Shown here: in pieces, positions 3,630 through 31,447 of the stretch
Layout of the letters: every line of letters starts with the position of its first letter
Position numbering within the stretch: position 1 is the first letter of the stretch
Origin: a virus
Taxonomy: Duplodnaviria > Caudoviricetes
Direction: 5' to 3' (one strand)
Virus record (IMG/VR): IMGVR_UViG_3300030103_002403
Coordinates: 1 to 31,448 of that record
Length of the DNA stretch: 31,448 nucleotides
Notes under the pieces: model-generated
Seen by the model: the letters and a program-made list of their open reading frames with translations, nothing else
Databases searched by the model: none
What the model was told of the DNA's origin: nothing
Made by a program: the position numbers and the translations under genes

Positions 3630-5033
3630 ATGGGGCGATTAATTAAAAATTCAAATGATGGTAGATTTGAAAGTGTTTCTAATACGATGAAACATATCCG
3701 TAAACCTGTATTTGTAGATAACGCAGTTCATTATGCGGAAATAAAAAAGACTGATAACGCAAATGCTAATTTTACAACTGCAAGAGCAGTAAATACTTTT
3801 CAAGTAATGCCCGATACTACATACTCAATAGTAGAAGGTGAGTCTTTTGTGAGGATAACACACAAGGGCGCAGATGGACACGACAGTAGTACATTAATAC
3901 CATTCTTTAACAATGAAAGTATTTCTAATTCTAATAAACCAACTTTACTTTATAATCCTAATTTTCCCAATCAAAGACTATTACCTTCTACTATAAATGG
4001 AAATATTATAAATTTAACAAATATGAAAAATAAAACACTTAATCAAATAGGTTTTGACAGTAATGAAGTTAGATTGGGCCAACCTATAGATGTAGGTTTT
4101 AGAACTACTGATACTGCAATAAGGATTGGAGAGAGTGTTACCAATAGTAGTTTGACAAGTGTAAATATATCTAAAATTAACAGTAAAAATAAAAAAGACA
4201 AAAAACATTCTATGAGATTTGTCGCTAAAGATTTTAACGGAATTAACATTATGACCGCATTAAGATTTTTAGGAAGACATGATACTCGCATGGTTATGCT
4301 AGATAGATTCGGTAATATGATATATGTACCAATTAGTTTTAGTGAGTCAAATAGAATTGTAGACCCCAACATAAAAACAGGTATGGGTGCAACAGACAAG
4401 ATAGATAACATACCTAATAGAATAACTATCAAAGGATTACCTATTGCTCTAAATGATGATGTATCTATAACTATGAATGATACCGAAAAACAAAGCGGTA
4501 CTAACGGAGAAGTGATAGAAGGTGAACCTATATTTGATACTACAATTAGAACATCTAGTGCGGCTAGAAGAATAGGTAGACAAATACTACGGGCTAATTC
4601 TTTAGAAAGTGGTACTATAATAAGTGAAGGGCAAATCAATATAACTGATTTAAGACCGGGTATGGCCGTAGATTACGGTGGTACACAACACATAATCACT
4701 GAAATAACTCATTACCCATTTGAAAAGAAATCCGATATTGTACTTTTGACAGTTGATACAGGTCTTGAAGGTGTACTGCAAGGTATTAGTGAAGGTATTA
4801 GCGTGGAAGGTAATGATAAAAACCCAACAGAATTTATACAAAATATCAAAGAGAACATTACCATGTTTGGTAGAATACAAATTAGAACTGTAGTAAGAGT
4901 TTCACAAAGAGAGGTACTTACTACTGCTTTCCTCATAGGAGGTGTTAAAGGAAATAACACAAGAGGGTTAATTGGTAAGGGTGGCTTACCTATAGGAATA
5001 AATAAATCACAAGAGCAAGAGAGGGTGTACTAA
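3630..5033 (+). CDS. Putative tail/baseplate hub-like structural protein
   Basis: 467-aa ORF in the structural operon. The C-terminal part (AARRIGRQIL...DLRPGMAV...IITEITH) resembles tail hub proteins. Function is inferred. Confidence 0.45.
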   Translation: MGRLIKNSNDGRFESVSNTMKHIRKPVFVDNAVHYAEIKKTDNANANFTTARAVNTFQVMPDTTYSIVEGESFVRITHKGADGHDSSTLIPFFNNESISNSNKPTLLYNPNFPNQRLLPSTINGNIINLTNMKNKTLNQIGFDSNEVRLGQPIDVGFRTTDTAIRIGESVTNSSLTSVNISKINSKNKKDKKHSMRFVAKDFNGINIMTALRFLGRHDTRMVMLDRFGNMIYVPISFSESNRIVDPNIKTGMGATDKIDNIPNRITIKGLPIALNDDVSITMNDTEKQSGTNGEVIEGEPIFDTTIRTSSAARRIGRQILRANSLESGTIISEGQINITDLRPGMAVDYGGTQHIITEITHYPFEKKSDIVLLTVDTGLEGVLQGISEGISVEGNDKNPTEFIQNIKENITMFGRIQIRTVVRVSQREVLTTAFLIGGVKGNNTRGLIGKGGLPIGINKSQEQERVY

Positions 5034-8818: not shown

Positions 8819-10214
8819 GATTCTTCGCACCCTTTCTACGGAAATAAACTCTTCCACCCGACATTTTACGATTAAACAATTTACTCGCATAATCTTTGAA
8901 ATGTCTTCTCACTGTACTTTTAGATACACCAACTGTATTCATATATTGTTGCTCTAATGAAGACTGTCTTCGCCAACCATCACCTTGACCGTCAATTTCA
9001 TAACCTGTACATTCATTGTATACTTTAATCATGTCTTCATGGATTTTACCTTCTTTACCTTTGTTTCCACCTATCTCAACTGAATCCTCTAACCAAGATA
9101 TTAAGTTTTTAAATAAGTCTAAAAGTATGTCAAAAGCCATATCTACATGTTGTGCAGTAATTACCCACTTCTTATCCAACACCGCCATGTGTAATGAAAT
9201 AATAGCAAGGTAGTTTTCAATAGCGGGTGTAAATGACGCTACAATCTCGGACATACTCGCTGACATGTTTCTTAACAAATCAAACACTTCATCGCTTGCT
9301 TGATACAACGCAGTTTCATAGTCTTCTTCTACAGTAAACATATCCCACATATACTGTTGGGCTATCTCTTCTTGTTCCTCACGACTCATTTCTGTCCATT
9401 GTGTAAATGTTAATTCTGCAAAGTTGAGTAGTCTATCTCTTACTCTCTTTTCAGTTTCTTTAAAGTAATCATACAAGTCATCTTTTGTTAAATCAATAAC
9501 CTTTGGTTTTTTATAGAAAGTAGCAAGTCTTGTATTACTCACTTCTTGTCGCATGTCCATATCCCAATGCGCCCAAAAGAGTAATACTCTTTGAAATATA
9601 CCTTTGGTAAGAACATACTCTTTAACATTCTTTGGAGGATATGTAGTAATCCAAAGTGATACTAATGACTCACACTTGATAATATCACCCTTCATCGGTT
9701 TAGTCAAAATATTTCCACCACTACCCACTGAATTACAGGCAGTTTGTAGATACAATACAGTTTCTTGACTGTGTTTGTTGGGAGTAAGAATGATAGAACC
9801 TTCATCAACATTCAATCCCTTTTGACCTGCTAACAAACCTTTGACTGTTTCAGTTTCACCTGTAGGTTTACCGTTCTCATCGTATACTTGTTTATTAGAA
9901 CCTATCAAACCTGCATCTGTACCTGTAGAATATAACTCATAATCTAATTCGGCATTCTTCATTACATCTCCAATAAAGTTCCATGCAACGGATTTACCTG
10001 TTCTTGAAGGTTGAATCCAAAATATGTGTACTCTTGGGTCTAAGTGGGAATCACTTGTTGGTATTCTTATGTAAGGTAATATCGCTTGTCCTTGTATAAA
10101 GAAAAACGATAGCAAACCCGGTATCTCATTTCTCATAGATGTTTGAGAAAAATGATGGAGATACGCTTGTAGTGTGTCAAACTTTTTTACTGCGCCGTAA
10201 TTTTTATAATCCAT
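8811..10214 (-). CDS. MCM-like AAA+ helicase (divergent)
   Basis: Walker A-like PSRTGKS, T.AGLIG, GLL....LNVDE (Walker B), an FQR arginine-finger-like motif and a winged-helix-like C-terminus. Located in the replication module. Confidence 0.65.
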   Translation of the reverse strand: MDYKNYGAVKKFDTLQAYLHHFSQTSMRNEIPGLLSFFFIQGQAILPYIRIPTSDSHLDPRVHIFWIQPSRTGKSVAWNFIGDVMKNAELDYELYSTGTDAGLIGSNKQVYDENGKPTGETETVKGLLAGQKGLNVDEGSIILTPNKHSQETVLYLQTACNSVGSGGNILTKPMKGDIIKCESLVSLWITTYPPKNVKEYVLTKGIFQRVLLFWAHWDMDMRQEVSNTRLATFYKKPKVIDLTKDDLYDYFKETEKRVRDRLLNFAELTFTQWTEMSREEQEEIAQQYMWDMFTVEEDYETALYQASDEVFDLLRNMSASMSEIVASFTPAIENYLAIISLHMAVLDKKWVITAQHVDMAFDILLDLFKNLISWLEDSVEIGGNKGKEGKIHEDMIKVYNECTGYEIDGQGDGWRRQSSLEQQYMNTVGVSKSTVRRHFKDYASKLFNRKMSGGRVYFRRKGAKNHD

Positions 10215-10236
10215 ATTATCAACCCTTTATTCTTTA

Positions 10237-10248
10237 ACAGTTTATATA
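10237..10248 (-). promoter_or_regulatory. Conserved TATA-box element, copy 1 (TATATAAACTGT)
   Basis: One of five near-identical elements lying 23-24 nt upstream of a start codon, here ATG 10214. Confidence 0.7.
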
Positions 10249-10254
10249 TTATTT

Positions 10255-12603: not shown

Positions 12604-12692
12604 TCTTCCTCCTGTTTCTTTTTCTTTTCTTCTTTCTTTTTACTTTCTCTAACTGTTTCTAAATAAAGTTTCATCTGTTTTCTCATATTCAT
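12600..12692 (-). CDS. 30-aa charged peptide (possible translational-coupling ORF)
   Basis: Hand translation: MNMRKQMKLYLETVRESKKKEEKKKKQEEE. TAATG overlap upstream and ATGA overlap downstream. Confidence 0.5.
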   Translation of the reverse strand: MNMRKQMKLYLETVRESKKKEEKKKKQEEE

Positions 12693-13708
12693 TATTTTTC
12701 CTCTCCTATTTTATCTAAATATTCATCTGTTATTGTCCAAAATTCACAATGGTCTTCAAAACTACACCACTTACATTTTAGGTTTTGTTCTTCCATAGGT
12801 AAACCCTCTTTGAATCTACCAAGAAAGGGCATAGCAGGGAAGTCCATTTCTATGTGTGCTTTGATAAGTTTAACTAAACTCTTTTCTACACTTCTCATAG
12901 CGTACTTCCCACCACCCTTTGCATCTTCATAATGTATTGTTGGACCATCACCACCGTTTATGCCTCCACCCGGAAACTCCCACCCCCAATGGGTTATAGG
13001 TAAAAATTCTTGATGTGGGCTATGCTCCAACATCATTTTGTAAAACGCCATTTCCTTCCTCATAGAACCCGGTTTGTTCTTGTTATACTTACCCGTCTTC
13101 AATTCCATAAGAGCAAAACCATCATCATCAGCAAAGAGTGTATCAATAAATCCGTTCATGTGTATAGGTATTTGTTCACCATCTACCTCAACAAACCTTG
13201 TTGCTTGTATGTTAGCCTCTACACCTACAGGTCGCCATTGTTCACCTTGTGTAGAAATCAATCTTGTAAACTGCCAATTCAACCATTGTTCTATTTGTTC
13301 ATCTTCACCAAACTGATACGGTTCGGGAGGTTTAGGAATAGCACTAAAGAAAATCTCTCTTGCTTGAGAATATGATTCTGCTACTAACTTTAACACTGAT
13401 TTTTCTTGTTCCTTTGTAAAATTAGCCCAAAACCATTCCATCATATCGTGAACATTCAATCCTCTAATGTGATGGTCTTCTTGTTCTCCCCTCAATCCTT
13501 TGAATTTCTCTATGTAATATTGTTGTGGACACCAACCAAATGTACCAATGCTTGACTTTGTAATTCTCAAAATACTACCGTCTTGTAGATTAGGATTCCA
13601 TGCGTATGTGCTACGCTTGTATGATTCAGCCTCCTTCTCATTACCCGTTTCTTTTAGGTAATCATCTATCTTAGGGCGACTATCATCACCATTGGGGTTA
13701 TATCTCAC
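12692..13708 (-). CDS. Cas4-like/RecB-family PD-(D/E)XK nuclease with Fe-S cysteines
   Basis: N-terminal WCP, G..VH, GFID and ELKTG, plus C-terminal CKWC.....C. Confidence 0.88.
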   Translation of the reverse strand: MRYNPNGDDSRPKIDDYLKETGNEKEAESYKRSTYAWNPNLQDGSILRITKSSIGTFGWCPQQYYIEKFKGLRGEQEDHHIRGLNVHDMMEWFWANFTKEQEKSVLKLVAESYSQAREIFFSAIPKPPEPYQFGEDEQIEQWLNWQFTRLISTQGEQWRPVGVEANIQATRFVEVDGEQIPIHMNGFIDTLFADDDGFALMELKTGKYNKNKPGSMRKEMAFYKMMLEHSPHQEFLPITHWGWEFPGGGINGGDGPTIHYEDAKGGGKYAMRSVEKSLVKLIKAHIEMDFPAMPFLGRFKEGLPMEEQNLKCKWCSFEDHCEFWTITDEYLDKIGEEK

Positions 13709-17347: not shown

Positions 17348-18307
17348 TTACAATGTACCGTCATACAGGTCGGGTAGACCGTACCATTTCGGCTCTCCAT
17401 CTGTGTAAGTAGTCATTACTGTCCTTGTTTGATTAACAAGTGAAGGATTAGTTTTACATTTAGTGTATGTAGCAGTGTAAGTAGTAGATACTAATTCATC
17501 TTCATCATCGTATTCATTGACGGCTTCCATGCGAATAAGTGTAGGTAAGTAGTTGTTAGTTTTCTTCTCCCATTCCGGTTGCCATACAACAGGCGCATCT
17601 TCCTTGTAGGAGAAGTTAGTAGCCCGTAAGTGAGTTTCCCAAAATACTCTAACACCAAGTCTAACCAAATCACGACTTAGTTTAGTGAGTTGATGAAACC
17701 GAGTATTACGGATAGCCCAATCGGACTGTCGCTCTACACGCTTTGCTTCACCTGCACCCCTGTTATCTGCCGCATCAATACCATCTTTAGCCAAACCTAA
17801 GTCAATGATACGCATGTTGTTAGTACATATCTCAAGCCATGAGTCAAGACCGCTTACAAGTACACCCCATACCGGAACGCCTCTTTCTACTTCGCTAATA
17901 ATGAACTTCATAATATCCATGACACGCTGATGTGTACCCGGATAATCGTATGCGGTTCTATCTTTTACTCCCATCTGCCACGGATTCCATGCTTTGATGT
18001 TAGGGTTATTGTAGATAGCCGAATTAAGCATACCTACACCGTTGTCAAAGTCAATAGCATGTGTTATCGCTCCTTCGGCTTTGTTAGCATCTTTTTCATA
18101 CGCATCTAAGAATACGGCTGACTTACAAGTACCATCATGACCGGAAGCACCAACAAAGAAATGAGTCTTAAAGATATGACTCATTGATTCTTGTTCTTGC
18201 CTCAAATGTGCATAAGGGTCTTTACTGTTAGTAGGTTTACTAACTACCTCTTCTACTGCTTCTTCAATCTTTTTCTGTGCTTTTACTGTCTGTCCAAATC
18301 CCGCCAT
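17348..18307 (-). CDS. AAA_24/RecA-like (Sak4-like) P-loop ATPase
   Basis: Variant Walker A GHDGTCKS, IDFDNG, VLVSGLDSW and V..ETH. Adjacent to the putative SSB. Confidence 0.65.
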   Translation of the reverse strand: MAGFGQTVKAQKKIEEAVEEVVSKPTNSKDPYAHLRQEQESMSHIFKTHFFVGASGHDGTCKSAVFLDAYEKDANKAEGAITHAIDFDNGVGMLNSAIYNNPNIKAWNPWQMGVKDRTAYDYPGTHQRVMDIMKFIISEVERGVPVWGVLVSGLDSWLEICTNNMRIIDLGLAKDGIDAADNRGAGEAKRVERQSDWAIRNTRFHQLTKLSRDLVRLGVRVFWETHLRATNFSYKEDAPVVWQPEWEKKTNNYLPTLIRMEAVNEYDDEDELVSTTYTATYTKCKTNPSLVNQTRTVMTTYTDGEPKWYGLPDLYDGTL

Positions 18308-19633: not shown

Positions 19634-20575
19634 TTATTCACCTTGTTTCATTTCTTTTTTTAGTCTAGCCACCAATACATCTACGAAGGCATTATCTCTT
19701 CCCGCAAACTCATGTACTCTATCCATCATATCGCCCCATACGCACAATACGCTGAATACAGTTTCGGAGTCTTTGTCAAAGAACCCCTTGATGTATTGGT
19801 GAAAATTATTCATGAAAGGTAAGCGACCACCTGCCCTTTCTAAATTGTCTTGAAGTTTCAACCGTAGTTCATTATACTCGCATGATGTAAAGTCATTCCA
19901 CCATTCATCTTCGGTTGTATTATTCAAAACTTTGAGAGCATCGGGTTTCTTAGGCGTACTCTCTAAGAGATTCACTGCCGCCCTTAAATCACCACCGCAT
20001 CTTGTGATAACATCTTCATACACTTCTTCCCATTCCACAGGCGCACCACATGATTCAGTCGCTCTCATCAAATGTCTAGCACCCTCTTTAGGTGATACAC
20101 GAGTAAATGTGTAAACTGTACACCTGCTCTTAATGGCAGGTCTTATCTTATCGGGATAGTTAGCAGTAAGTACAAACAGTACCCTATGAGCATACTTCTC
20201 CATGATACCCCTAAGAGCATCTTGAGATTGGGGAGTAAGCCCATCAGCCTCATCTAGTACAACTAATTTACGAGCAACCCCTATACCACTCAATCGTGCA
20301 AACTGTTTAATCTGTTCACGAATGTGTGCTATCCCCCTATCATCGCTCGCATTAGTCCAAAGAACATTCATATCATTGTTCCATTGTCCTAACATTGTGT
20401 GTCTAATAGCGTTTGCCGCACTAGATTTACCTGTACCCGGTGGACCGACTATAAGTATGGCCGATGGGTACTCACCCGTTTTTTCCCATTCAATAAAGTC
20501 TTGAACAAATACATTATTACCTACAATCTCCACCGGAGTAGTAGGTCGTAATTTTTCATTCCAATTCAACTTCAT
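19634..20575 (-). CDS. rfcS: Replication factor C small subunit (clamp loader)
   Basis: Motifs W.EKLRP, GPPGTGKS, NASDDRG, LDEAD, SRC and GDLR. The true start may be TTG 20569. Confidence 0.93.
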   Translation of the reverse strand: MKLNWNEKLRPTTPVEIVGNNVFVQDFIEWEKTGEYPSAILIVGPPGTGKSSAANAIRHTMLGQWNNDMNVLWTNASDDRGIAHIREQIKQFARLSGIGVARKLVVLDEADGLTPQSQDALRGIMEKYAHRVLFVLTANYPDKIRPAIKSRCTVYTFTRVSPKEGARHLMRATESCGAPVEWEEVYEDVITRCGGDLRAAVNLLESTPKKPDALKVLNNTTEDEWWNDFTSCEYNELRLKLQDNLERAGGRLPFMNNFHQYIKGFFDKDSETVFSVLCVWGDMMDRVHEFAGRDNAFVDVLVARLKKEMKQGE

Positions 20576-20592
20576 CAACCTTCTATTCTTTG

Positions 20593-20604
20593 ACAGTTTA
20601 AATA
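20593..20604 (-). promoter_or_regulatory. Conserved TATA-box element, copy 2 (TATTTAAACTGT)
   Basis: Same element as at 10237, upstream of rfcS. It contains the TAA stop of the preceding gene. Confidence 0.65.
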
Positions 20605-20999
20605 CTATTTTCCAAAATCAAGTTATAGTCATCCCATTTTTTAACCCAATCATAAAAATTATCTAGCGATGTATTCTTATTTGCTCTAGGCATTGGATTA
20701 TCTAATATCCATTTCATACGCTTATACCCATTCCTATTTTCTATAAACATGTCATACGGAGCGATAGCATCTATCCATGCTTGTATGTCTGCTTTCTTCT
20801 TTACACGATATTTCAGTGTTAATTTATTTTCATCACAAAACAACTGTACAATCGCTTTAGTATGAGAATCTTGTATGTCTATCTGTATGTACTTCTCTAC
20901 TCTAAACCCATGACCGTAATGTACCTTAGATACAGATACCGAGAAGCGCATCTTAGTAAGCACTACACCCAAACCTATGTCCATTAAATGTTTACTCAT
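20598..20999 (-). CDS. Hypothetical protein, possibly a degenerate LAGLIDADG-fold DNA-binding protein
   Basis: The pattern helix - FSVSVSK...GFRV..YIQI..QD...YRV....DI...I..I.PY resembles single-motif LAGLIDADG proteins but lacks the acidic catalytic residue. Confidence 0.4.
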   Translation of the reverse strand: MSKHLMDIGLGVVLTKMRFSVSVSKVHYGHGFRVEKYIQIDIQDSHTKAIVQLFCDENKLTLKYRVKKKADIQAWIDAIAPYDMFIENRNGYKRMKWILDNPMPRANKNTSLDNFYDWVKKWDDYNLILENSI

Positions 21000-22568: not shown

Positions 22569-22770
22569 CAATCTTCTCCCCCACTGCTATATGAAAAGGA
22601 GTTGCTACGATATAATTTTGATTAGGGGGTAATCTACTTATCACTTCTTTTCTTAATTGAGTTAAATTATCTTTATTAGGGTACAATGAAAGTAAGAACT
22701 CCCACTTTAATTCATTAGGGTTATGAGATTCTATTATGTACCCATTAGAAAAATCATATTTTCTGTCCAT
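22546..22770 (-). CDS. Hypothetical protein
   Basis: 74 aa, with a GGGTGA RBS and the conserved promoter element upstream. Confidence 0.65.
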   Translation of the reverse strand: MDRKYDFSNGYIIESHNPNELKWEFLLSLYPNKDNLTQLRKEVISRLPPNQNYIVATPFHIAVGEKIDASSVSH

Positions 22771-22792
22771 ATTATCACCCTACTTATCTATG

Positions 22793-22804
22793 ACAGTTTA
22801 TATA
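22793..22804 (-). promoter_or_regulatory. Conserved TATA-box element, copy 3 (TATATAAACTGT)
   Basis: Lies 23 nt from ATG 22770 and contains the stop of the PC4-like gene. Confidence 0.7.
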
Positions 22805-23073
22805 TCATCTTCCCGTTCCGCTTTTTCAATAGCATCATCTATGTCGCCTAACATTTCATTTAACATAGGTAGCATACTGCGTAATTGTTCGGGTGTAAGT
22901 CTAACTCCTTCTTTAGAATGTATATATCCGTCTTCTTCACGCCTAAGTATTCTTAGGTCAATCCAATTTCGGCCTCCCCACTTAACCCAAGCAAGGCGAA
23001 CCTTACCTTTACCGGAAGACCACTTCCTTACCTTTGAATCATCTTCCCAAAAGTTTCTTTCAAAATTACTCAT
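22798..23073 (-). CDS. PC4/YdbC-like ssDNA-binding protein
   Basis: W.GR.WIDLR......G...SKEGVRLT.EQ is the PC4-fold signature. Confidence 0.8.
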   Translation of the reverse strand: MSNFERNFWEDDSKVRKWSSGKGKVRLAWVKWGGRNWIDLRILRREEDGYIHSKEGVRLTPEQLRSMLPMLNEMLGDIDDAIEKAEREDDI

Positions 23074-23785: not shown

Positions 23786-24038
23786 TGTCCTCACCATTGA
23801 CCTCACACAGTCCAAACATGCCACAACATACCCCTTTGTAAAGATACTGCCCGTTGCTAAGTAAATACATTTTATTTTTACTGTTAATTTTATTACAAGT
23901 CGGACAGTTAATCCCGTTATCCCAAATCGCAATTTCCATCACAACAGTATGATACTCCCCATTAAGAAGTATCTCATAATCTCTCATATCTCCTTCGGCA
24001 CTATCGGGAGTAATTGTTTCTATTTCTTTATCATTCAT
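23763..24038 (-). CDS. Small Zn-finger protein
   Basis: Start ATG 24038 behind GGAGG. Contains CPTC...CC. Confidence 0.65.
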   Translation of the reverse strand: MNDKEIETITPDSAEGDMRDYEILLNGEYHTVVMEIAIWDNGINCPTCNKINSKNKMYLLSNGQYLYKGVCCGMFGLCEVNGEDNGMATDN

Positions 24039-24039
24039 T

Positions 24040-24204
24040 TTACCGCCTCCAATCTTTTCCTTCATATCTATAAGTTTCTATCCAACTACACTCTTGAGAT
24101 TCATATTCAAATATAAGTAGTTCACCTTCTGTATAATAATTTACAGGGTCTACCATTTCTCCGTTGCATTCACAATCTTCTTCTGTACATACTGATGGTA
24201 TCAC
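24040..24204 (-). CDS. 54-aa microprotein started from the last array repeat
   Basis: Hand translation: MIPSVCTEEDCECNGEMVDPVNYYTEGELLIFEYESQECSWIETYRYEGKDWRR. It does not end in VEVTA. Confidence 0.7.
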   Translation of the reverse strand: MIPSVCTEEDCECNGEMVDPVNYYTEGELLIFEYESQECSWIETYRYEGKDWRR

Positions 24205-24356
24205 GCCGTCACCTCCACGCTTCGCTTGTAAGGATATTTAGAAGATACTCTTCTACTCTTACAGAATGAACAATACCATTCGTGTTGCTCTCTACCCGTA
24301 GGGGTGTAGCCTACGGGATTTATGTTGAGTCTTTCCCAATCACAATCACAACTCAT
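24201..24356 (-). CDS. Cassette microprotein 10 (51 aa, CxC...CxxC)
   Basis: Hand translation: MSCDCDWERLNINPVGYTPTGREQHEWYCSFCKSRRVSSKYPYKRSVEVTA. Confidence 0.8.
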   Translation of the reverse strand: MSCDCDWERLNINPVGYTPTGREQHEWYCSFCKSRRVSSKYPYKRSVEVTA

Positions 24357-24472
24357 GCCGTCACTTCCACGCTTGGTTCAAATGAACCACATGAAGTATC
24401 GCAATCCCAACAAATAGCGACGAGTCCATCTATCATACCGTATGCTTCTTCATCGCATAATTCGCACTTCAC
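24353..24472 (-). CDS. Cassette microprotein 9 (39 aa, CxxC...CxxC)
   Basis: Hand translation: MKCELCDEEAYGMIDGLVAICWDCDTSCGSFEPSVEVTA. Confidence 0.8.
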   Translation of the reverse strand: MKCELCDEEAYGMIDGLVAICWDCDTSCGSFEPSVEVTA

Positions 24473-24630
24473 GCCGTCACCTCCACGCCTTCGGGCAATT
24501 CGCAATCATCACAGTAGTAACGATAATACTGTGCCGTTTGCCACGCTATCGGAGGAAATGCTTTACAGATAGGTGCATGACAATTAGTGCATGTAATCAT
24601 TATACCTTCGCCCCAATCTTTTTTACTCAC
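24469..24630 (-). CDS. Cassette microprotein 8 (53 aa, CxxC...CxxC)
   Basis: Hand translation: MSKKDWGEGIMITCTNCHAPICKAFPPIAWQTAQYYRYYCDDCELPEGVEVTA. Confidence 0.8.
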   Translation of the reverse strand: MSKKDWGEGIMITCTNCHAPICKAFPPIAWQTAQYYRYYCDDCELPEGVEVTA

Positions 24631-24737
24631 GCCGTCACCTCCACGCTTAGTCTAATTGCTTCATCATAAGCCTTCTTGAGAGGCCAACCCTTCTTGAGTA
24701 GGTCAATGTAATACGCCCTGTGTATAGCCCAATTCAT
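24627..24737 (-). CDS. Cassette microprotein 7 (36 aa, helical)
   Basis: Hand translation: MNWAIHRAYYIDLLKKGWPLKKAYDEAIRLSVEVTA. Confidence 0.78.
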   Translation of the reverse strand: MNWAIHRAYYIDLLKKGWPLKKAYDEAIRLSVEVTA

Positions 24738-24877
24738 GCCGTCACCTCCACGCCTTCTTCTGTTTGAATACTAACTCCACAAGAATTACACCATAGGTTG
24801 TTTAAATTATCTTCATCTTCATCAATGAAGCAATCTCCAACCTCTTTACATATCGGACATTCAATACCTTCACTCAT
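24734..24877 (-). CDS. Cassette microprotein 6 (47 aa, acidic Zn ribbon)
   Basis: Hand translation: MSEGIECPICKEVGDCFIDEDEDNLNNLWCNSCGVSIQTEEGVEVTA. Confidence 0.8.
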   Translation of the reverse strand: MSEGIECPICKEVGDCFIDEDEDNLNNLWCNSCGVSIQTEEGVEVTA

Positions 24878-25050
24878 GCCGTCACCTCCACGCTATAATC
24901 TTGCTCTTGTTTTATTTGTTCTTCACTCATCATGTATGGCCCTTCAAGTTTCTGTGTTGAGGATAGATTAGCGTAGCAATCCATTTCTTGCTTGCTATCA
25001 CATATTACTGTTGTTCCGTCATTGTTCAATACAATCCATACTCGCTTCAC
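24874..25050 (-). CDS. Cassette microprotein 5 (58 aa)
   Basis: MKRVWIVLNNDGTTVICDSKQEMDCYANLSSTQKLEGPYMMSEEQIKQEQDYSVEVTA, starting at the GTG inside the repeat. Confidence 0.8.
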   Translation of the reverse strand: MKRVWIVLNNDGTTVICDSKQEMDCYANLSSTQKLEGPYMMSEEQIKQEQDYSVEVTA

Positions 25051-25349
25051 ACCGTCACCTCCACGCAATCACAACGCTCACAGTAGTCGCTATCTTCAAC
25101 CAACTCATCACACCGTGTGCAAATTTCACAGTAGCATTCATCTTCCGGTTCATTACAGTGGTAGCAAACCTTACTGTTATCATGACATACTACACCATCT
25201 TCGGGGCTTTCTACATTACAAGCAACATGAGTGCCACATTTTAAACAAGTAAAAGTGACAACCAATTCCCCTCTACCATAAAAACTACCGTCATCCCATT
25301 CGTGGTCGCAAGTCACAGGGAAGAATCCTTTTTTGATAAACTCACTCAC
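25047..25349 (-). CDS. Cassette protein 4 (100 aa, very Cys-rich)
   Basis: MSEFIKKGFF...CDHEW...CLKC...CYHC...CYCEICTRC...CERCDCVEVTV, starting at the GTG inside the repeat. Confidence 0.82.
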   Translation of the reverse strand: MSEFIKKGFFPVTCDHEWDDGSFYGRGELVVTFTCLKCGTHVACNVESPEDGVVCHDNSKVCYHCNEPEDECYCEICTRCDELVEDSDYCERCDCVEVTV

Positions 25350-25486
25350 GCCGTCACCTCCACGCACTTACATGGTGCTACCTTAATCATACCACCAAAG
25401 TAGTCAGCATCTACATACTTACCACATTTTGAGCATACCACACTGCTAATTTCCTTGTTGTATAATACTTCACTATTCAATCTCAT
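25346..25486 (-). CDS. Cassette microprotein 3 (46 aa, CxxC...CxC)
   Basis: Hand translation: MRLNSEVLYNKEISSVVCSKCGKYVDADYFGGMIKVAPCKCVEVTA. Confidence 0.8.
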   Translation of the reverse strand: MRLNSEVLYNKEISSVVCSKCGKYVDADYFGGMIKVAPCKCVEVTA

Positions 25487-25632
25487 GCCTTCACCTCCAC
25501 GCCTTTATGGAACACACGGTATCTTGTACCGTTTATAGTCCAACAAGGAATTGCTATCGTGTCTGTATCATCACAGATATACACTTCTCGACCTTCTCTC
25601 ATTTCTGCTCTCCATCCTTTTATTCCTTTCAT
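25483..25632 (-). CDS. Cassette microprotein 2 (49 aa)
   Basis: Hand translation: MKGIKGWRAEMREGREVYICDDTDTIAIPCWTINGTRYRVFHKGVEVKA. Confidence 0.8.
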   Translation of the reverse strand: MKGIKGWRAEMREGREVYICDDTDTIAIPCWTINGTRYRVFHKGVEVKA

Positions 25633-25763
25633 GCCGTCACCTCCACGCATTCCTCATGTTCCGGTATAATCCAATTGTTTGTATCTCTACCGTTTTCAAA
25701 GCACCAATCAACGCCATTTATTTTGGCTATTTCATCATCACCTACATACACATATCTGCTCAC
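25629..25763 (-). CDS. Cassette microprotein 1 (44 aa)
   Basis: Hand translation: MSRYVYVGDDEIAKINGVDWCFENGRDTNNWIIPEHEECVEVTA. Confidence 0.8.
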   Translation of the reverse strand: MSRYVYVGDDEIAKINGVDWCFENGRDTNNWIIPEHEECVEVTA

Positions 25764-26275
25764 GCCGTCACCTCCCACCAAGTAGGAACATCTGCTCGGA
25801 CATACCGTACACCGCCCTTACTGTATTGTTTGGACTTGTAGTAAGACCTGTAGGCTTTGACTGCATCATCGTCTTTGTATTCGTCGGGCATGGCCTGTGC
25901 AAATGTAGTAAGTTTACCTTTAGGTACAATAATCTTTGATGCTTGTAAAGCATTCATTTTAGCAATCGGTTCTAAACACGCATGTTGTTTACCGAAGCGA
26001 CTTGTGTACTCAACACACAAAGCAATAGCATGGTTGGCTAACCACATGAAATTGTCATGGCTATCGCCCGCCCATACTGTACAAGGGTGATGCTTGTAGC
26101 CTCCCTTGTATGGCTTACCTGCTTTGGTAAGTGGCATCTGCTCATCAGTAGCACCATGCCTACGCAAACTAGCGGCCATCATCTGTGCGCTTTCTACGCA
26201 CATTTTAGGTACTCTTACATCATCTAAATACTGCGCCGCAGTAATAGGGTTTTCATCTAATACAAATATGTTCAT
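25760..26275 (-). CDS. Pyrimidine-dimer DNA glycosylase/DenV-like (Pyr_excise family) protein
   Basis: MNIFVLD.NP..AA....D..V.KM.VESAQM, YK...HHPC.VW and L..EY..R.GK.H motifs. Ends WWEVTA in the partial repeat. Confidence 0.8.
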   Translation of the reverse strand: MNIFVLDENPITAAQYLDDVRVPKMCVESAQMMAASLRRHGATDEQMPLTKAGKPYKGGYKHHPCTVWAGDSHDNFMWLANHAIALCVEYTSRFGKQHACLEPIAKMNALQASKIIVPKGKLTTFAQAMPDEYKDDDAVKAYRSYYKSKQYSKGGVRYVRADVPTWWEVTA

Positions 26276-26534: not shown

Positions 26535-26708
26535 TTACACCCCCAACTTATTCTGCATCCATTCAATACAGAAGTCTACTTCTTCTACAGTCCATACTCC
26601 CATACCGTAATTAATGGTAGTCAAGTTTTCATACAAGTTAGGATGGTCTATACCTTCACAAAGTAAACTGTGTACTAATTCTCTAAGTCTATCTGTCATT
26701 CTAATCAT
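26535..26708 (-). CDS. Hypothetical protein (57 aa)
   Basis: Start re-placed at ATG 26708, 24 nt from promoter element copy 4 and behind GAGGTTGA. Confidence 0.65.
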   Translation of the reverse strand: MIRMTDRLRELVHSLLCEGIDHPNLYENLTTINYGMGVWTVEEVDFCIEWMQNKLGV

Positions 26709-26731
26709 TTTCATCAACCTCTTTTTCTTTA

Positions 26732-26743
26732 ACAGTTTAAATA
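26732..26743 (-). promoter_or_regulatory. Conserved TATA-box element, copy 4 (TATTTAAACTGT)
   Basis: Same element, and the nearest copy upstream of the DenV-like gene and the cassette array. Confidence 0.7.
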
Positions 26744-26748
26744 ATAAT

Positions 26749-27114
26749 TCAGTAATCTCCCGTAGTGTAGTAATCATTTAACGATGTTTGATTTGCATAC
26801 GGTCTGTGGTCTAGCCCATACCTGTACATCACATGCCATACACTCATTAGTGAATCGTGATACTCGTTATCATCTACACTTGCTTTGAAGTTATCATAGG
26901 TAATGTCCAATAACATATCACCAATTATTCTTGACACTTCAACTTCTTCTATGTCTGCCCTGTATGGGTAGTCTGCCTTATCATCAACATATACTTTAGC
27001 ATCTTCAAAAATACTTTCAATGTGATTTTTATTCCTCGCTCGCACCAATAAAGTATTTTCTTTATCCCTGTGCCTTACGATACTCAACCATCCTTTATTC
27101 GTCGCTATCCACAT
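26749..27114 (-). CDS. Hypothetical phage protein with C-terminal PIP-box-like motif QTSLNDYY
   Basis: MWI....GWLSIV...LLVRAR...ADY.YRA...I.Y.NFK pattern. Start ATG 27114 behind GGAGG. Confidence 0.75.
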   Translation of the reverse strand: MWIATNKGWLSIVRHRDKENTLLVRARNKNHIESIFEDAKVYVDDKADYPYRADIEEVEVSRIIGDMLLDITYDNFKASVDDNEYHDSLMSVWHVMYRYGLDHRPYANQTSLNDYYTTGDY

Positions 27115-28769: not shown

Positions 28770-28948
28770 GTTATCACCAAATCCTCTTGATTCTCATTCA
28801 CTTCAAAGTGTTCAAATGCCTTTCTCCATACTCCATCTTCCATGAAGTATTCAACCAAAGGGTGAAGTAGCATATTCATGCTACCGCTTTTCTGCACCTT
28901 ATGATACTGACTCCACATCTTTTTCGTTATAGTGTATGGTCTGTTCAC
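28766..28948 (-). CDS. Hypothetical protein (60 aa, DUF5049-like SG.MNM motif)
   Basis: Start re-placed at GTG 28948 (GTGA overlap with the DUF932 stop). Confidence 0.62.
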   Translation of the reverse strand: MNRPYTITKKMWSQYHKVQKSGSMNMLLHPLVEYFMEDGVWRKAFEHFEVNENQEDLVIT

Positions 28949-29946
28949 GCTATCATCTCCATCGCTTTGTTCCATGCAATTACTTTCCTTCGTGCAAGTG
29001 GGCCGAACATAGCCGACTCTAAACGCTTAGTGCTTTTCTCACCGTTTCTAAGTTCGGTTAGTTTGTGGTCTATCGCTTCTGTGATTGCATTGTACGCCGC
29101 CCACACTGTACCACCCATACGACCTACATTATTTGTAGGCGACATGAGAAGTATGTTGGTATTGTGAATAATGTTCTTGCCTCTTGTAGCAAGTTCTCCG
29201 TCTTCATCACGCTTGAGTTGCATAACATCAATGAAGTATTCTTGAGCATCATCAAGAGTAATCTTAGTTTCAAGCATTCTCTCTACATCGTTAGCCCAAC
29301 TGCTAAAGTCTTCCTCTACATTCTTCATAGCCTGTAGTGCCTCATTCATTCTTTCGTGCATCTTACCCGTATGTCTAATTGCATAACCTTGACCTGCCCC
29401 TTGTCTAAGAGCCATTGACAAAGTATTGAAACAAACTACACGGATAGGTGTAGGTAGTATGCGTACTGAACCTGTACCATCATGTGTATTAGTGATAAGT
29501 ATATACTTGTGAATAGTATCAACACCATCAAAGACAATACTCGTAGGTAGTCTTGCTAATATCCATACAGTCTGTCCTTCACCTAGCGCACCACATACCT
29601 CAACCTTCGGCTTGTGGTCGCCCGATAGTTCATCAAGGAATGCAAACGCATCTACATTCTGTAGTGCTTTCCATACCTTACCAACTGCTTTACCGTTCTT
29701 AGTCAATGGTATTCTCTTTCCACCTTCTGTACGGAATACTCCGTAGGTAGCAGGTAGTACCTCCATCTCATCATTGTCCTCATAGTACAACGGCTCTTTG
29801 ACAACTCGCCAATCCAAGTGCGCTTTCTCTAACGCCTCGGTTGTTGTCATCAATCCTTGTGCCTGTGTACCCAACTTGTGCCACGGAGTCGCCCCCGCCC
29901 AAGCCGTCATCCATTCTCCTTCTTTTGTCTGTGCTAAATTGTGCAT
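28945..29946 (-). CDS. DUF932 / phage-plasmid TIGR03299-family protein
   Basis: Motifs PWHKLG, LDW.V, QN.DAF.F, G..VWILARLP, N.HDG.GS, TPIRVVC.NTL, IRHT and T.WAAYNAITE. Confidence 0.88.
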   Translation of the reverse strand: MHNLAQTKEGEWMTAWAGATPWHKLGTQAQGLMTTTEALEKAHLDWRVVKEPLYYEDNDEMEVLPATYGVFRTEGGKRIPLTKNGKAVGKVWKALQNVDAFAFLDELSGDHKPKVEVCGALGEGQTVWILARLPTSIVFDGVDTIHKYILITNTHDGTGSVRILPTPIRVVCFNTLSMALRQGAGQGYAIRHTGKMHERMNEALQAMKNVEEDFSSWANDVERMLETKITLDDAQEYFIDVMQLKRDEDGELATRGKNIIHNTNILLMSPTNNVGRMGGTVWAAYNAITEAIDHKLTELRNGEKSTKRLESAMFGPLARRKVIAWNKAMEMIA

Positions 29947-30098: not shown

Positions 30099-30205
30099 TC
30101 TTCCTCACCTATCATGTTATTTTTCTTCATCGCTTTCGCTATGCTCTTTCTAAACTTAGCCAAGTATCTACCTCGCCTCGCTTTCTTTTGTCTTTTTGTC
30201 GCCAT
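30095..30205 (-). CDS. 36-aa highly basic microprotein
   Basis: Hand translation: MATKRQKKARRGRYLAKFRKSIAKAMKKNNMIGEEE. First gene after promoter element copy 5. Confidence 0.65.
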   Translation of the reverse strand: MATKRQKKARRGRYLAKFRKSIAKAMKKNNMIGEEE

Positions 30206-30228
30206 CTTTCTCAACCTCTTTATCTTCA

Positions 30229-30240
30229 ACAGTTTATATA
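30229..30240 (-). promoter_or_regulatory. Conserved TATA-box element, copy 5 (TATATAAACTGT)
   Basis: Lies 24 nt from ATG 30205 and contains the phosphatase stop codon. Confidence 0.7.
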
Positions 30241-30719
30241 TTATTTCTTTCAGTGTTAATTTTAATTTCTCCATCGTGAATTAAATTATTACATACCTCT
30301 CTCGCTATGTCAGCGTACAAGTCTTTGTTCTCATGTAGTATGGTAGACCATTCCTCCACCATAGACGGCCTCGCAACCATCATCTTAGAGATAGTTTCAC
30401 CTATCGTATTACCGAGTAGATGTAGTACAACATACGCTACACCACCTGTCCTATCCCTACCATGTACGCAGTGCAAGAGAACATCTTTGCCCCCATCAAG
30501 TAAATCAATTACCAAGTCTACGGCATGCGCCCATATCTCCGGTGAACTATTTTTAGCCCTAAAGTAATAGTGGTGTCGCTCATGCTTGTCCGAGTCTATA
30601 AACTTAGGTGGATAGCGACATAGCGATACAACTGTATGATGTGCTTTCAGTGTATCACGGAAATCATTAAGGCCACACATAGTAAGTGAGCCATTACTTA
30701 CTTTGATTGATTTGTTCAT
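30234..30719 (-). CDS. Dual-specificity/tyrosine protein phosphatase family (CX5R)
   Basis: VLLHCVHGRDRTG active-site loop. Confidence 0.88.
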   Translation of the reverse strand: MNKSIKVSNGSLTMCGLNDFRDTLKAHHTVVSLCRYPPKFIDSDKHERHHYYFRAKNSSPEIWAHAVDLVIDLLDGGKDVLLHCVHGRDRTGGVAYVVLHLLGNTIGETISKMMVARPSMVEEWSTILHENKDLYADIAREVCNNLIHDGEIKINTERNNI

Positions 30720-31072
30720 TCCCATAAAATCATCTCCACCTTTTGTAATAGTTCATAACTCCAATACTCTTTAGCGTCATGTTGCGCTATTTCTTTTATC
30801 AGTTCACGCAACCGCTTGACTTGTTCATTCCTATCTTTTACTGCTTTTAATAAACCATCAATTGCCTTTATCATCCCTGTATCATCATTCTTCACTTCTT
30901 CAAGCAACATCTCTTTTTCCTCACGCAACCGCTTGTAATCTTCAAGGATAAGTGGTGCGTCTTGTACAAGTTTCCTGTCTGCATCTTCCGCCCATCGGGG
31001 GAGAGTATTTGCGAACATTTGCCAACGCCCAATGTTTTCAATGTGTCCTGTATATTTGTCTGTGTCAATCAT
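30716..31072 (-). CDS. Hypothetical coiled-coil protein with MIDTDKY N-terminus
   Basis: 118 aa, with KRLRE occurring twice. Confidence 0.78.
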   Translation of the reverse strand: MIDTDKYTGHIENIGRWQMFANTLPRWAEDADRKLVQDAPLILEDYKRLREEKEMLLEEVKNDDTGMIKAIDGLLKAVKDRNEQVKRLRELIKEIAQHDAKEYWSYELLQKVEMILWE

Positions 31073-31258
31073 TCAATCACCCCAATACTCAATATCATCT
31101 TCGTCAAGGCCATCGTAGCCATGATGCTTCATAACAATCAATTTCTCAACGCAGTAAGAATGATACGGTATTCCGTATGTAGTCATCGTTGCTTCCCCTT
31201 CAATTGCTTCTTCGCAGTAAGCGCAGGTGTGTCCTTCGTATTTGTCTGTGTCAATCAT
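31073..31258 (-). CDS. Zn-finger microprotein with MIDTDKY N-terminus
   Basis: 61 aa, with CAYC...H..C. Confidence 0.75.
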   Translation of the reverse strand: MIDTDKYEGHTCAYCEEAIEGEATMTTYGIPYHSYCVEKLIVMKHHGYDGLDEDDIEYWGD

Positions 31259-31412
31259 TTCTTCTCACTTCCTCTATGTAATGTGCTTCACGCCATTCTT
31301 CATCGTGTGAATCATAGTGAGCCTTTGCTTCTTCGTAGGTAGCAAATGCCCCATCGGACTCTCCGCTTTTGAAATGTGTCACCATGTATTCGTATTTGTC
31401 TGTGTCAATCAT
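31251..31412 (-). CDS. 53-aa microprotein with MIDTDKY N-terminus
   Basis: Hand translation: MIDTDKYEYMVTHFKSGESDGAFATYEEAKAHYDSHDEEWREAHYIEEVRRND. Confidence 0.72.
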   Translation of the reverse strand: MIDTDKYEYMVTHFKSGESDGAFATYEEAKAHYDSHDEEWREAHYIEEVRRND

Positions 31413-31447
31413 TCTTCATCACCTTCTTCTAAACCACAGATGTTACA
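31409..31447 (-). CDS. C-terminal end of a CxxC protein running off the window
   Basis: ...CNICGLEEGDEE-stop, with an ATGA overlap into the next gene. Confidence 0.5.
   Translation of the reverse strand, partial: CNICGLEEGDEE

Follow-up and report, generated by a model that had tools for sequence, protein, structure and literature searches.

The window analysed here, a 31,448-nt stretch of viral DNA (Duplodnaviria; Caudoviricetes) corresponding to positions 1 to 31,448 of IMG/VR record IMGVR_UViG_3300030103_002403, contains a tandem array of ten very small genes joined by a 20-nt repeat (positions 24201-25779, minus strand). Comparison with related arrays supports a cassette reading, in which related viruses have gained, lost and reordered the genes singly at the repeat. 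As the mechanism we favour, with a probability of about 70%, short-homology recombination in the 16-nt core of the repeat, taking place between genomes or via circles, yielding viable and expressed recombinants and, by repeated use, homogenising the junction. The exchange is predicted to be run by a general RecA-fold, Sak4-like protein and not by an integrase.

The repeat is present in eleven direct copies on the minus strand. Seven of them match it exactly, three deviate at a single position, and copy 1 deviates at three. The plus strand of the window contains no copy, and none appeared in 100 shuffles. In our numbering of the 20 nt, positions 1-4 are GCGT, and positions 5-20 form the core, which is composed of a Shine-Dalgarno sequence (SD; its pairing presumes the host anti-SD sequence as we take it to be), a spacer and RTGA. 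From copy 1 to copy 11 the spacing is 131, 146, 137, 299, 173, 140, 107, 158, 116 and 152, every period being 2 mod 3. Each of the ten units is one open reading frame (ORF) of 36-100 aa, which begins with the RTG in one copy, stops with the TGA in the following copy and ends in VEVTA (eight units), VEVKA (one) or VEVTV (one). The bodies between the repeats, 87-279 nt long, are all coding, and the array has no intergenic DNA. At its borders copy 1 closes a DenV-like gene (C-terminus WWEVTA), hereafter the anchor, and copy 11 opens a 54-aa ORF. The coordinates are given in Table 1.

Table 1. Repeat copies, cassettes and associated features of the window
Feature	Positions	Strand	Remarks
DenV-like anchor gene (Pyr_excise PF03013), 171 aa	25760..26275	-	PF03013 E=2.6e-8; C-terminus WWEVTA holds copy 1
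Repeat copy 1	25760..25779	-	3 mismatches, all within GCGT
Cassette 1, 44 aa	25629..25763	-	homologues 89-96% nt in other arrays
Repeat copy 2	25629..25648	-	exact
Cassette 2, 49 aa	25483..25632	-	tail VEVKA; behind cassette 9 in L291, L300, L333 and run X10 contig
Repeat copy 3	25483..25502	-	1 mismatch
Cassette 3, 46 aa	25346..25486	-	CxxC; 98% nt homologue in L070
Repeat copy 4	25346..25365	-	exact
Cassette 4, 100 aa	25047..25349	-	Cys-rich; single ORF
Repeat copy 5	25047..25066	-	1 mismatch, VEVTV
Cassette 5, 58 aa	24874..25050	-	single ORF
Repeat copy 6	24874..24893	-	exact
Cassette 6, 47 aa	24734..24877	-	CxxC x2; precisely missing in run X7 contig
Repeat copy 7	24734..24753	-	exact
Cassette 7, 36 aa	24627..24737	-	most widespread of the ten; body 100% in L013, 99% in L075, neighbours differ
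Repeat copy 8	24627..24646	-	exact
Cassette 8, 53 aa	24469..24630	-	CxxC x2; ahead of 7 (X10 contig), behind 9 (L347): both orders swapped
Repeat copy 9	24469..24488	-	exact
Cassette 9, 39 aa	24353..24472	-	CxxC x2; single ORF
Repeat copy 10	24353..24372	-	1 mismatch, in SD
Cassette 10, 51 aa	24201..24356	-	body 100% identical in L012
Repeat copy 11	24201..24220	-	exact; SD and start for the following ORF
54-aa ORF	24040..24204	-	starts at last repeat; no 3' repeat
TATA-like motif	26719..26748	-	two ORFs upstream of anchor; repeat families D3/D5
Candidate exchange catalyst (RecA/Rad51-fold ATPase, Sak4-like), 319 aa	17348..18307	-	model and fold matches
PD-(D/E)XK exonuclease-like gene	12692..13708	-	PF12705 E=9e-17

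A preliminary description of the window had already reported the eleven copies, the common phase and the ten stop-free units with their similar ends, and had stated that the units share nothing else; relocation of the copies, recomputation of the periods and translation gave the same picture, and the ten products sorted into ten different protein families. That description also set a chance expectation of (1/3)^10 against the phase. The figure shows that the units are coupled by RTGA, but it is no test of the cassette idea: RTGA coupling with the SD in the upstream tail is the usual junction of these viruses, and the 2-mod-3 phase is therefore not cassette evidence. The cassette reading follows from the comparison of relatives.

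The array is real. Logan contigs of runs X1 and X2 covered it with zero differences and spanned nine of the eleven repeats with at least 31 nt on each side, while the remaining two were covered by overlapping pieces; a contig of the independent run X5, which comes from another study, spanned the junction at 25346-25365. Joints with a side below 30 were disregarded in these Logan contig comparisons. Because X1/X2 contigs tile the array and X5 bridges one junction, the repeat-induced misassembly against which the preliminary description had warned is excluded. More generally, it is extremely improbable that the repeat led the assembly to produce a false array or false variants of it. Every comparison rests on metagenomic contigs and X1/X2 may be the source sample, but the repeat is shorter (20 nt) than the 31-mers underlying the Logan contigs, the substitutions that separate moved cassettes are under purifying selection, the 5' part of the repeat is inherited together with the upstream gene, and most cassettes of other arrays are missing from the window.

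The exact 20-mer was found in 76 viral loci. Among the related loci (L numbers below), cassette number, content and order varied when the locus downstream of the anchor was compared, as the preliminary description had suggested doing. With the phase left free, the two-repeat pattern was found in 87 metagenome loci, and all 80 distinct matches were 2 mod 3 and enclosed a single ORF. Among the distinct units of up to 330 bp, 283 of 297 were in phase. The repeats were clustered in arrays, not scattered; the largest of 93 non-nested arrays had ten cassettes. Array runs lay behind the DenV-like anchor in 63 of the 95 assessable cases, and some genomes had second-site arrays away from it. The anchor comparison comprised the best 80 of 438 anchor-gene relatives: the core terminated 52 of these genes, further copies lay downstream of 36, and 25 had none. 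Six single-hit loci without an anchor (L010, L016, L037, L053, L055 and L056) were left out of the counts, L358 was left out of the adjacency and order counts, and seven overlapping loci were left out of the early array comparisons among relatives. Loci L337 and L338, which carry the window's array unchanged, were not taken as independent, and identical body-plus-flank records were removed before the spacer count and the comparison of cassette pairs. No DNA match to the array was found in named phages. A search of cellular genomes (14 of 64 parts) with an 18-mer listed 80 single matches, mostly in GC-rich bacteria, and no arrays; it was uninformative about the host.

Some loci depart from the arrangement in the window. 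L009 and L019 have two arrays per genome, 2.7-3.3 kb apart, and only one of the two follows the DenV-like gene. In L012 and L317 repeats flank the anchor on both sides, and close relatives have differing anchor alleles. Repeat variants in which TAA and a 1-nt or shifted overlap (TAATG) replace RTGA occur in L128 (junction after the anchor), L083 and L092.

Gene-by-gene turnover was assessed in cassette pairs with at least 85% body identity (n = 278; the pairs share members and are thus non-independent). Both flanks differed in 234 pairs, one flank in 26 and neither in 18. Among pairs with at least 98% identity, both flanks differed in 47 of 80. Cassette identity exceeded anchor identity in 30 of 30 pairs (medians 0.94 versus 0.73), and cassette 10 is identical in L012 although the anchor of this locus is only 63% identical. 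In the 93 non-nested arrays 17 of 224 adjacencies recurred and four were found in both orders; of the co-occurring cassette pairs, 17 of 65 were found inverted. Cassette families sit at first to last positions in different arrays, with no positional gradient from the anchor.

Individual loci displayed the same changes. The site ahead of the clamp-loader gene is empty in L123 and is occupied by one cassette each, all different, in L094, L128 and L142. L291 and L333 are one 155-bp cassette apart, and the blocks on its two sides are 99.8% and 98.1% identical. In a contig of run X7, from another study, cassette 6 is precisely missing, with the joint 24733>24874, a skip of 140 and 20 nt that fit either side, and contigs of run X10 (a further study) have the cassette orders 8-7 and 9-2. 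The relatives thus vary in the cassettes they carry, in how many and in which sequence, and the breakpoints lie within the repeat, as the preliminary description had predicted.

The breakpoints could be placed within the repeat. On the upstream side identity rose from ~0.3 to >0.9 at repeat position 5, and on the downstream side it fell to ~0.3 just past position 20, where 234 of 250 extensions stopped within 2 nt. These steps at positions 5 and 20 identify the 16-nt core as the exchanged unit; by the same alignments GCGT (positions 1-4) is the tail of the upstream gene. The original proposal of recombination between the 20-bp repeats is accordingly corrected to positions 5-20, GCGT going with the upstream gene.

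Breakpoints at gene boundaries would also arise if the repeat were only a strong convergent signal for SD and RTGA coupling, the swaps being illegitimate and selection keeping the joints that preserve SD and start. Junctions in these viruses generally have the SD in the upstream tail and overlap by RTGA, and selection for viable joints would act in the same direction. We find this explanation quite unlikely, as it does not account for near-identical cassettes with both neighbours new (the 47 of 80 pairs mentioned above), for the shared non-SD spacer and rare codons, or for retention of the repeat in another reading frame. The spacer was CGGC in 89 of 165 SD-N4-RTGA junctions picked without spacer constraint; in two near-complete genomes CGGC occurred in 5 of the 10 junctions inside arrays, against 0 of the 13 junctions outside them. 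Codon -6 was GGC in 49 cases, TGC in 12, AGC in 10, TGT in five and GGT in three. The encoded residue varies (G, C, S) and the bases GC are constant; GGC accounts for 6% of the glycine codons in core genes. Among 14 out-of-phase units, 11 retain the repeat but use the TGA contained in the SD as their stop, and their tails are of the AWR, GW, GR or QR type. Since the repeat is kept where the reading frame differs, the VEVTA sequence is a by-product of the DNA repeat: it is present at the ends of the window units, as first described, but the 11 units end in another frame.

The same data bear on the idea that xVEVTA is a selected peptide tag of early proteins (a degron or docking motif), with the DNA repeat as its consequence. 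EVTA ends most cassettes, but residue -6 changes while its bases GC are kept, the codons used are rare ones, the 11 units with other tails have the repeat intact, and tail-less homologues exist at array ends. A peptide tag as the cause of the repeat is, in our judgement, very improbable.

Polymorphism of the start codon (R of RTGA, position 17) provided information about where crossovers fall. R was identical in 17 of 17 same-context pairs. It was polymorphic in 6 of the 41 clusters compared on the upstream side and in 16 of the 38 on the downstream side. In moved cassettes R mostly goes with the gene it starts and less often with the gene it ends. This pattern gives modest support to crossovers that are spread across the core, not confined to one cut. 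Several of the common repeat variants (ACAGC, ATG versus GTG, GCATG) represent transitions at CG dinucleotides.

The array would be a true integron analogue if a site-specific recombinase that has escaped recognition, encoded by the virus or its host, acted on the 16-mer and made and integrated circular cassettes. Such an enzyme would suit the almost single movement of the cassettes (both flanks differing in 234 of 278 pairs), the four adjacent pairs seen in both orders, the lack of duplicates inside arrays, the conserved non-SD bases CGGC and the location of most arrays on one anchor gene. We nevertheless consider it unlikely, for reasons that concern both the site and the enzyme. Folding of the repeat did not differ from shuffles (z = 0.13 and 0.28 for the repeat by itself, -0.79 and 1.04 when its flanks were included), and no dyad or hairpin was detected. 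Crossovers occur on both sides of position 17, cassettes show no gradient from the anchor, and repeat variants grade into ordinary junctions. The tyrosine recombinase family PF00589 was found in 0 of 4 relatives that are 94-100% complete (the control was positive in 14 of 14) and the resolvase (serine recombinase) family PF00239 in 0 of 5. No integrase was detected among 127 ORFs scanned in two genomes; these were taken from 182 called ORFs of at least 110 aa, overlapping frames and most structural genes being left out. None of the 48 window ORFs scanned was an integron integrase. The preliminary statement that the window has no visible integrase thus holds for the scanned ORFs, but a RecA-fold recombination candidate is encoded.

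This candidate is the 319-aa protein encoded at 17348-18307. It has a Walker-A-like motif, and its viral matches are AAA proteins and RecA-like recombinases. AAA_24 matched 4 of 14 homologues (best E 7e-5). An alignment-based model reached a predicted local distance difference test score (pLDDT) of 87.7, in contrast to 36 for the single-sequence fold, and its top fold matches in the Protein Data Bank (PDB) were RecA, RAD51 paralogues and RadA, at a template modelling (TM) score of ~0.45; sequence searches against the PDB gave no match. In the available text of PMC5928155, Sak4 is a RecA-core annealing protein that tolerates 12% divergence, and ssb adjoins up to 80% of sak4 genes. The RecA-core fold with Walker motifs is matched by the window protein in the model and the fold search, and we regard this protein as the likely exchange catalyst. 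Its 441-aa neighbour had no Pfam, PHROG, NCBIfam or Atlas match; from its context, our guess is an SSB/RPA protein. The PD-(D/E)XK exonuclease-like protein is a possible resection partner. The RecA-fold gene was present in 5 of 5 related genomes.

In the mechanism that we prefer, recombination by short homology, a crossover would take place between repeat copies on co-infecting or sister genomes, or through excised circles like those formed by the repeats of T4-type phages (see below). Wherever in the core it fell, each gene would be left with SD, start and stop, so that recombinants should be viable, and the recombinant cassettes would be read from a single upstream promoter. New genes could enter by microhomology at their own SD/RTGA junction and then gain the EVTA tail; cassette homologues without this tail occur at array ends and suggest such a route of recruitment. 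Repeated use of the junction would homogenise the repeat, and the payload would constitute a rotating set of host-takeover or counter-defence genes, mostly microproteins of Zn-binding type together with DNA methyltransferases.

Several observations weigh against this mechanism. A length of 16 nt is short for RecA-type exchange. No circles or excision junctions were seen in the comparison, which was of contigs only. The same cassette never occurred twice in one array (0 of 93), and unequal crossing-over should give transient duplicates; these may be purged. The RecA-fold gene is present also in the array-less relatives L081, L082 and L091, so it has no specific tie to cassettes; because it occurs in loci without arrays, we view the protein as a general enzyme. 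Its link to Sak4 is weak by sequence (4 of 14 homologues), and its TM score to RecA is only ~0.45. As for payload and host, 121 of 126 cassette family representatives had no Pfam match, and the window is linked to its probable host by gene content only.

One joint in the X1/X2 contigs, which goes back 180, was considered as a circle of cassette 8 and rejected: it fits an array of the L041 type, which has the cassette 8 tail, another cassette and then a gene with a similar head.

The cassettes of all arrays fell into 126 protein families, of which 65 were singletons (Chao1 ~227). The products are small (median 52 aa; >120 aa in 15 of 294), and CxxC motifs occur in 86 of the 126 families. Five family representatives had Pfam matches: three DNA methyltransferases, a zinc ribbon and the DenV-like gene. 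The description of the payload as microprotein genes consequently applies to most cassettes, typically with CxxC, but methyltransferases of 209-297 aa also travel as cassettes, and the DenV-like gene, when bounded by repeats on both sides, is itself payload. The ratio pN/pS (nonsynonymous to synonymous polymorphism) was 0.24 for the 60 families analysed, and in 50 of these pN was below pS, from which we conclude that the cassettes are selected genes. Their size, their position and the methyltransferases suggest host-takeover or counter-defence factors. The methyltransferase cassettes, of the N6/N4 and C5 types, are at L035:212-955, L059:3378-4004 and L299:1614-2504. The N- and C-terminal halves of cassette 4 weakly match two adjoining cassettes of L295 (combined E 8e-5), and cassette 4 is possibly two fused cassettes. 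Cassette 10 contains an 8-bp stem-loop at 24295-24317, which scored as terminator-like on the plus strand.

We compared the array with known systems of repeat-associated gene shuffling. Among the closest in behaviour are the promoter early stem-loops (PeSLs) of T4-type phages (Arbiol 2010, PMC2839356; Comeau 2014, PMC4122927). As far as these sources describe them, PeSL repeats lie on either side of small ORFans in variable regions and are the places where genes are inserted, deleted, replaced or displaced; crossovers lie inside the repeat, which holds an SD and a start codon, and mini-circles form by repeat recombination without an identified integrase. General recombination machinery without a dedicated integrase is also what the window offers, with its RecA-fold gene in all five genomes. 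In the same accounts, however, the PeSL is an intergenic promoter plus stem-loop that gives each gene its own transcription signals, whereas the window repeat has 16-20 nt, showed no promoter or stem-loop, is coding for the gene on each side of it and contains the stop of the upstream one. A sigma-70-type site was not found on the minus strand of the array, by a scan that does not cover archaeal promoters. Moreover, PeSL mini-circles were demonstrated (PMC2839356, in the text available), whereas the cassettes of the window are known from contigs alone.

The array also works like the boundary sequences of cluster AU Arthrobacter phages such as Giantsbane. Such a sequence is, in the available part of that preprint (bioRxiv 2020.01.10.891226), a 32-bp intergenic repeat associated with a five-gene set; the preprint also cites lambdoid boundary sequences. 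The window repeat, unlike it, is coding, combines SD, stop and start, and serves a pool of at least 126 families. Start-associated sequences (SAS) of cluster K mycobacteriophages (PMC3203893) resemble the repeat, according to the sections of that paper at hand, in being short, asymmetric and SD-overlapping, with conserved bases that do not pair with rRNA, ahead of unrelated non-structural genes. They differ, on the same account, in being 13 bp long, dispersed, tied to given gene families and proposed to act in translation initiation, not in exchange; the window repeats are clustered in arrays whose neighbours turn over. The PeSL-like motifs of HGTV-1 (PMC3950731), likewise an archaeal tailed virus, precede many ORFs and were proposed to aid shuffling. 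They are described there, in the text accessible to us, as promoter-type elements made up of a TATA box and an inverted repeat, for which shuffling was only suggested. Charybdis elements, as the available text of bioRxiv 2025.08.03.668216 presents them, are unrelated.

Integrons have an IntI-type tyrosine recombinase, an attC hairpin and polarised insertion at the leader site. The array resembles them in its promoterless tandem single-gene cassettes, fixed anchor, probable single promoter, large open pool and reordering, but no IntI-type recombinase or attC-like hairpin was found here, and the spread of cassette families over first to last positions gave no sign of leader-polarised insertion. 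PMC2839356 also compares integrons with PeSLs. An integron/attC reading was rejected, there being no hairpin above shuffles. It is rather doubtful that the array represents a minimal integron analogue, in which the 16-nt coding junction would be a dedicated site, single-gene circles would draw on a community pool of hundreds, an ATG/GTG toggle would retune expression with each move and the driver would be an unrecognised recombinase or a specialised RecA-fold protein. A CRISPR array was rejected too, as the units are 87-279 nt long, coding and under purifying selection; signs of CRISPR in the window amounted to a Cas4-like PD-(D/E)XK gene, below cut-off, and no Rfam match.

The array is not a member of the PeSL, boundary-sequence, HGTV-1-motif, SAS or integron families, as it lacks a promoter, a stem-loop, intergenic DNA and an integrase. 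What sets it apart is that recombination joint and translation junction coincide, within the coding sequence of both adjoining genes. Searches of the open literature found no description of the repeat; the original descriptions of magroviruses (Philosof 2017, Xu 2023, Zhou 2023) and their supplements lay outside the scope of these searches and may mention it. The preliminary description had known of no counterpart to the doubly coding repeat, and the searches gave none either; as precedents for the mechanism, PeSL mini-circles and boundary sequences are already in print. We consider the array a real, well-supported variant of repeat-mediated gene shuffling.

Since the translation signal doubles as the recombination joint, every exchange would give expressed in-frame genes with no intergenic DNA, and a zero-overhead accessory genome is possible for a virus. 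Why phage mosaic breakpoints fall on gene boundaries can be measured here, on hundreds of events that share a 16-nt unit. The ~126 families of selected, unannotated microproteins are candidates for host takeover or counter-defence in marine archaea that are abundant but uncultured. Short GTG-started genes tend to escape annotation pipelines, and the repeat locates them directly.

Genes of the window outside the array specify a thermosome subunit, PolB, a clamp loader and nucleases of the PD-(D/E)XK and ERCC4 types. The runs that match the window best are marine metagenomes, and no RNA run was among the matches listed. Among named phages its PolB is nearest to halovirus enzymes; no named magrovirus was among the 20 PolB matches listed. 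Poseidoniales viruses (magroviruses) are described in the available text of PMC11706807 as lytic, lacking an integrase and encoding PolB, thermosome/chaperonin and a PD-(D/E)XK nuclease. The gene set reported there is matched by the window, which is likely to be a Poseidoniales virus.

The TATA-like motif at 26719-26748 is the likely promoter of the array operon. This proposal is limited to the window, because the motif was absent within 3 kb upstream of the anchor in all relatives examined. On the minus strand of the window a TATA-like motif followed by an SD and a start occurs five times (10204-10254, 20560-20610, 22760-22810, 26699-26749 and 30196-30246), each copy heading a gene block, and the five copies likely represent a viral promoter class.

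Other junctions in the window are also repetitive. Three successive small genes have a common MIDTDKY head and a ~24-nt repeat (31049-31087, 31235-31273 and 31389-31427), possibly a second, N-terminal type of junction repeat. Between 26272 and 30274 (minus strand), and also in L151 and L154, several small genes have GEEE/DEE-type tails derived from a GGTGA-GAAGAA-ATGA junction, which may be another homogenised junction family. Upstream of the array the window encodes a DUF932/TIGR03299 protein (28945-29946) and a tyrosine-phosphatase-family protein (30234-30725), both present in the relative G001. Finally, a perfect 23-nt AT-rich inverted match connects 4172-4194 with 23870-23892, 19.7 kb apart, within two unrelated ORFs.

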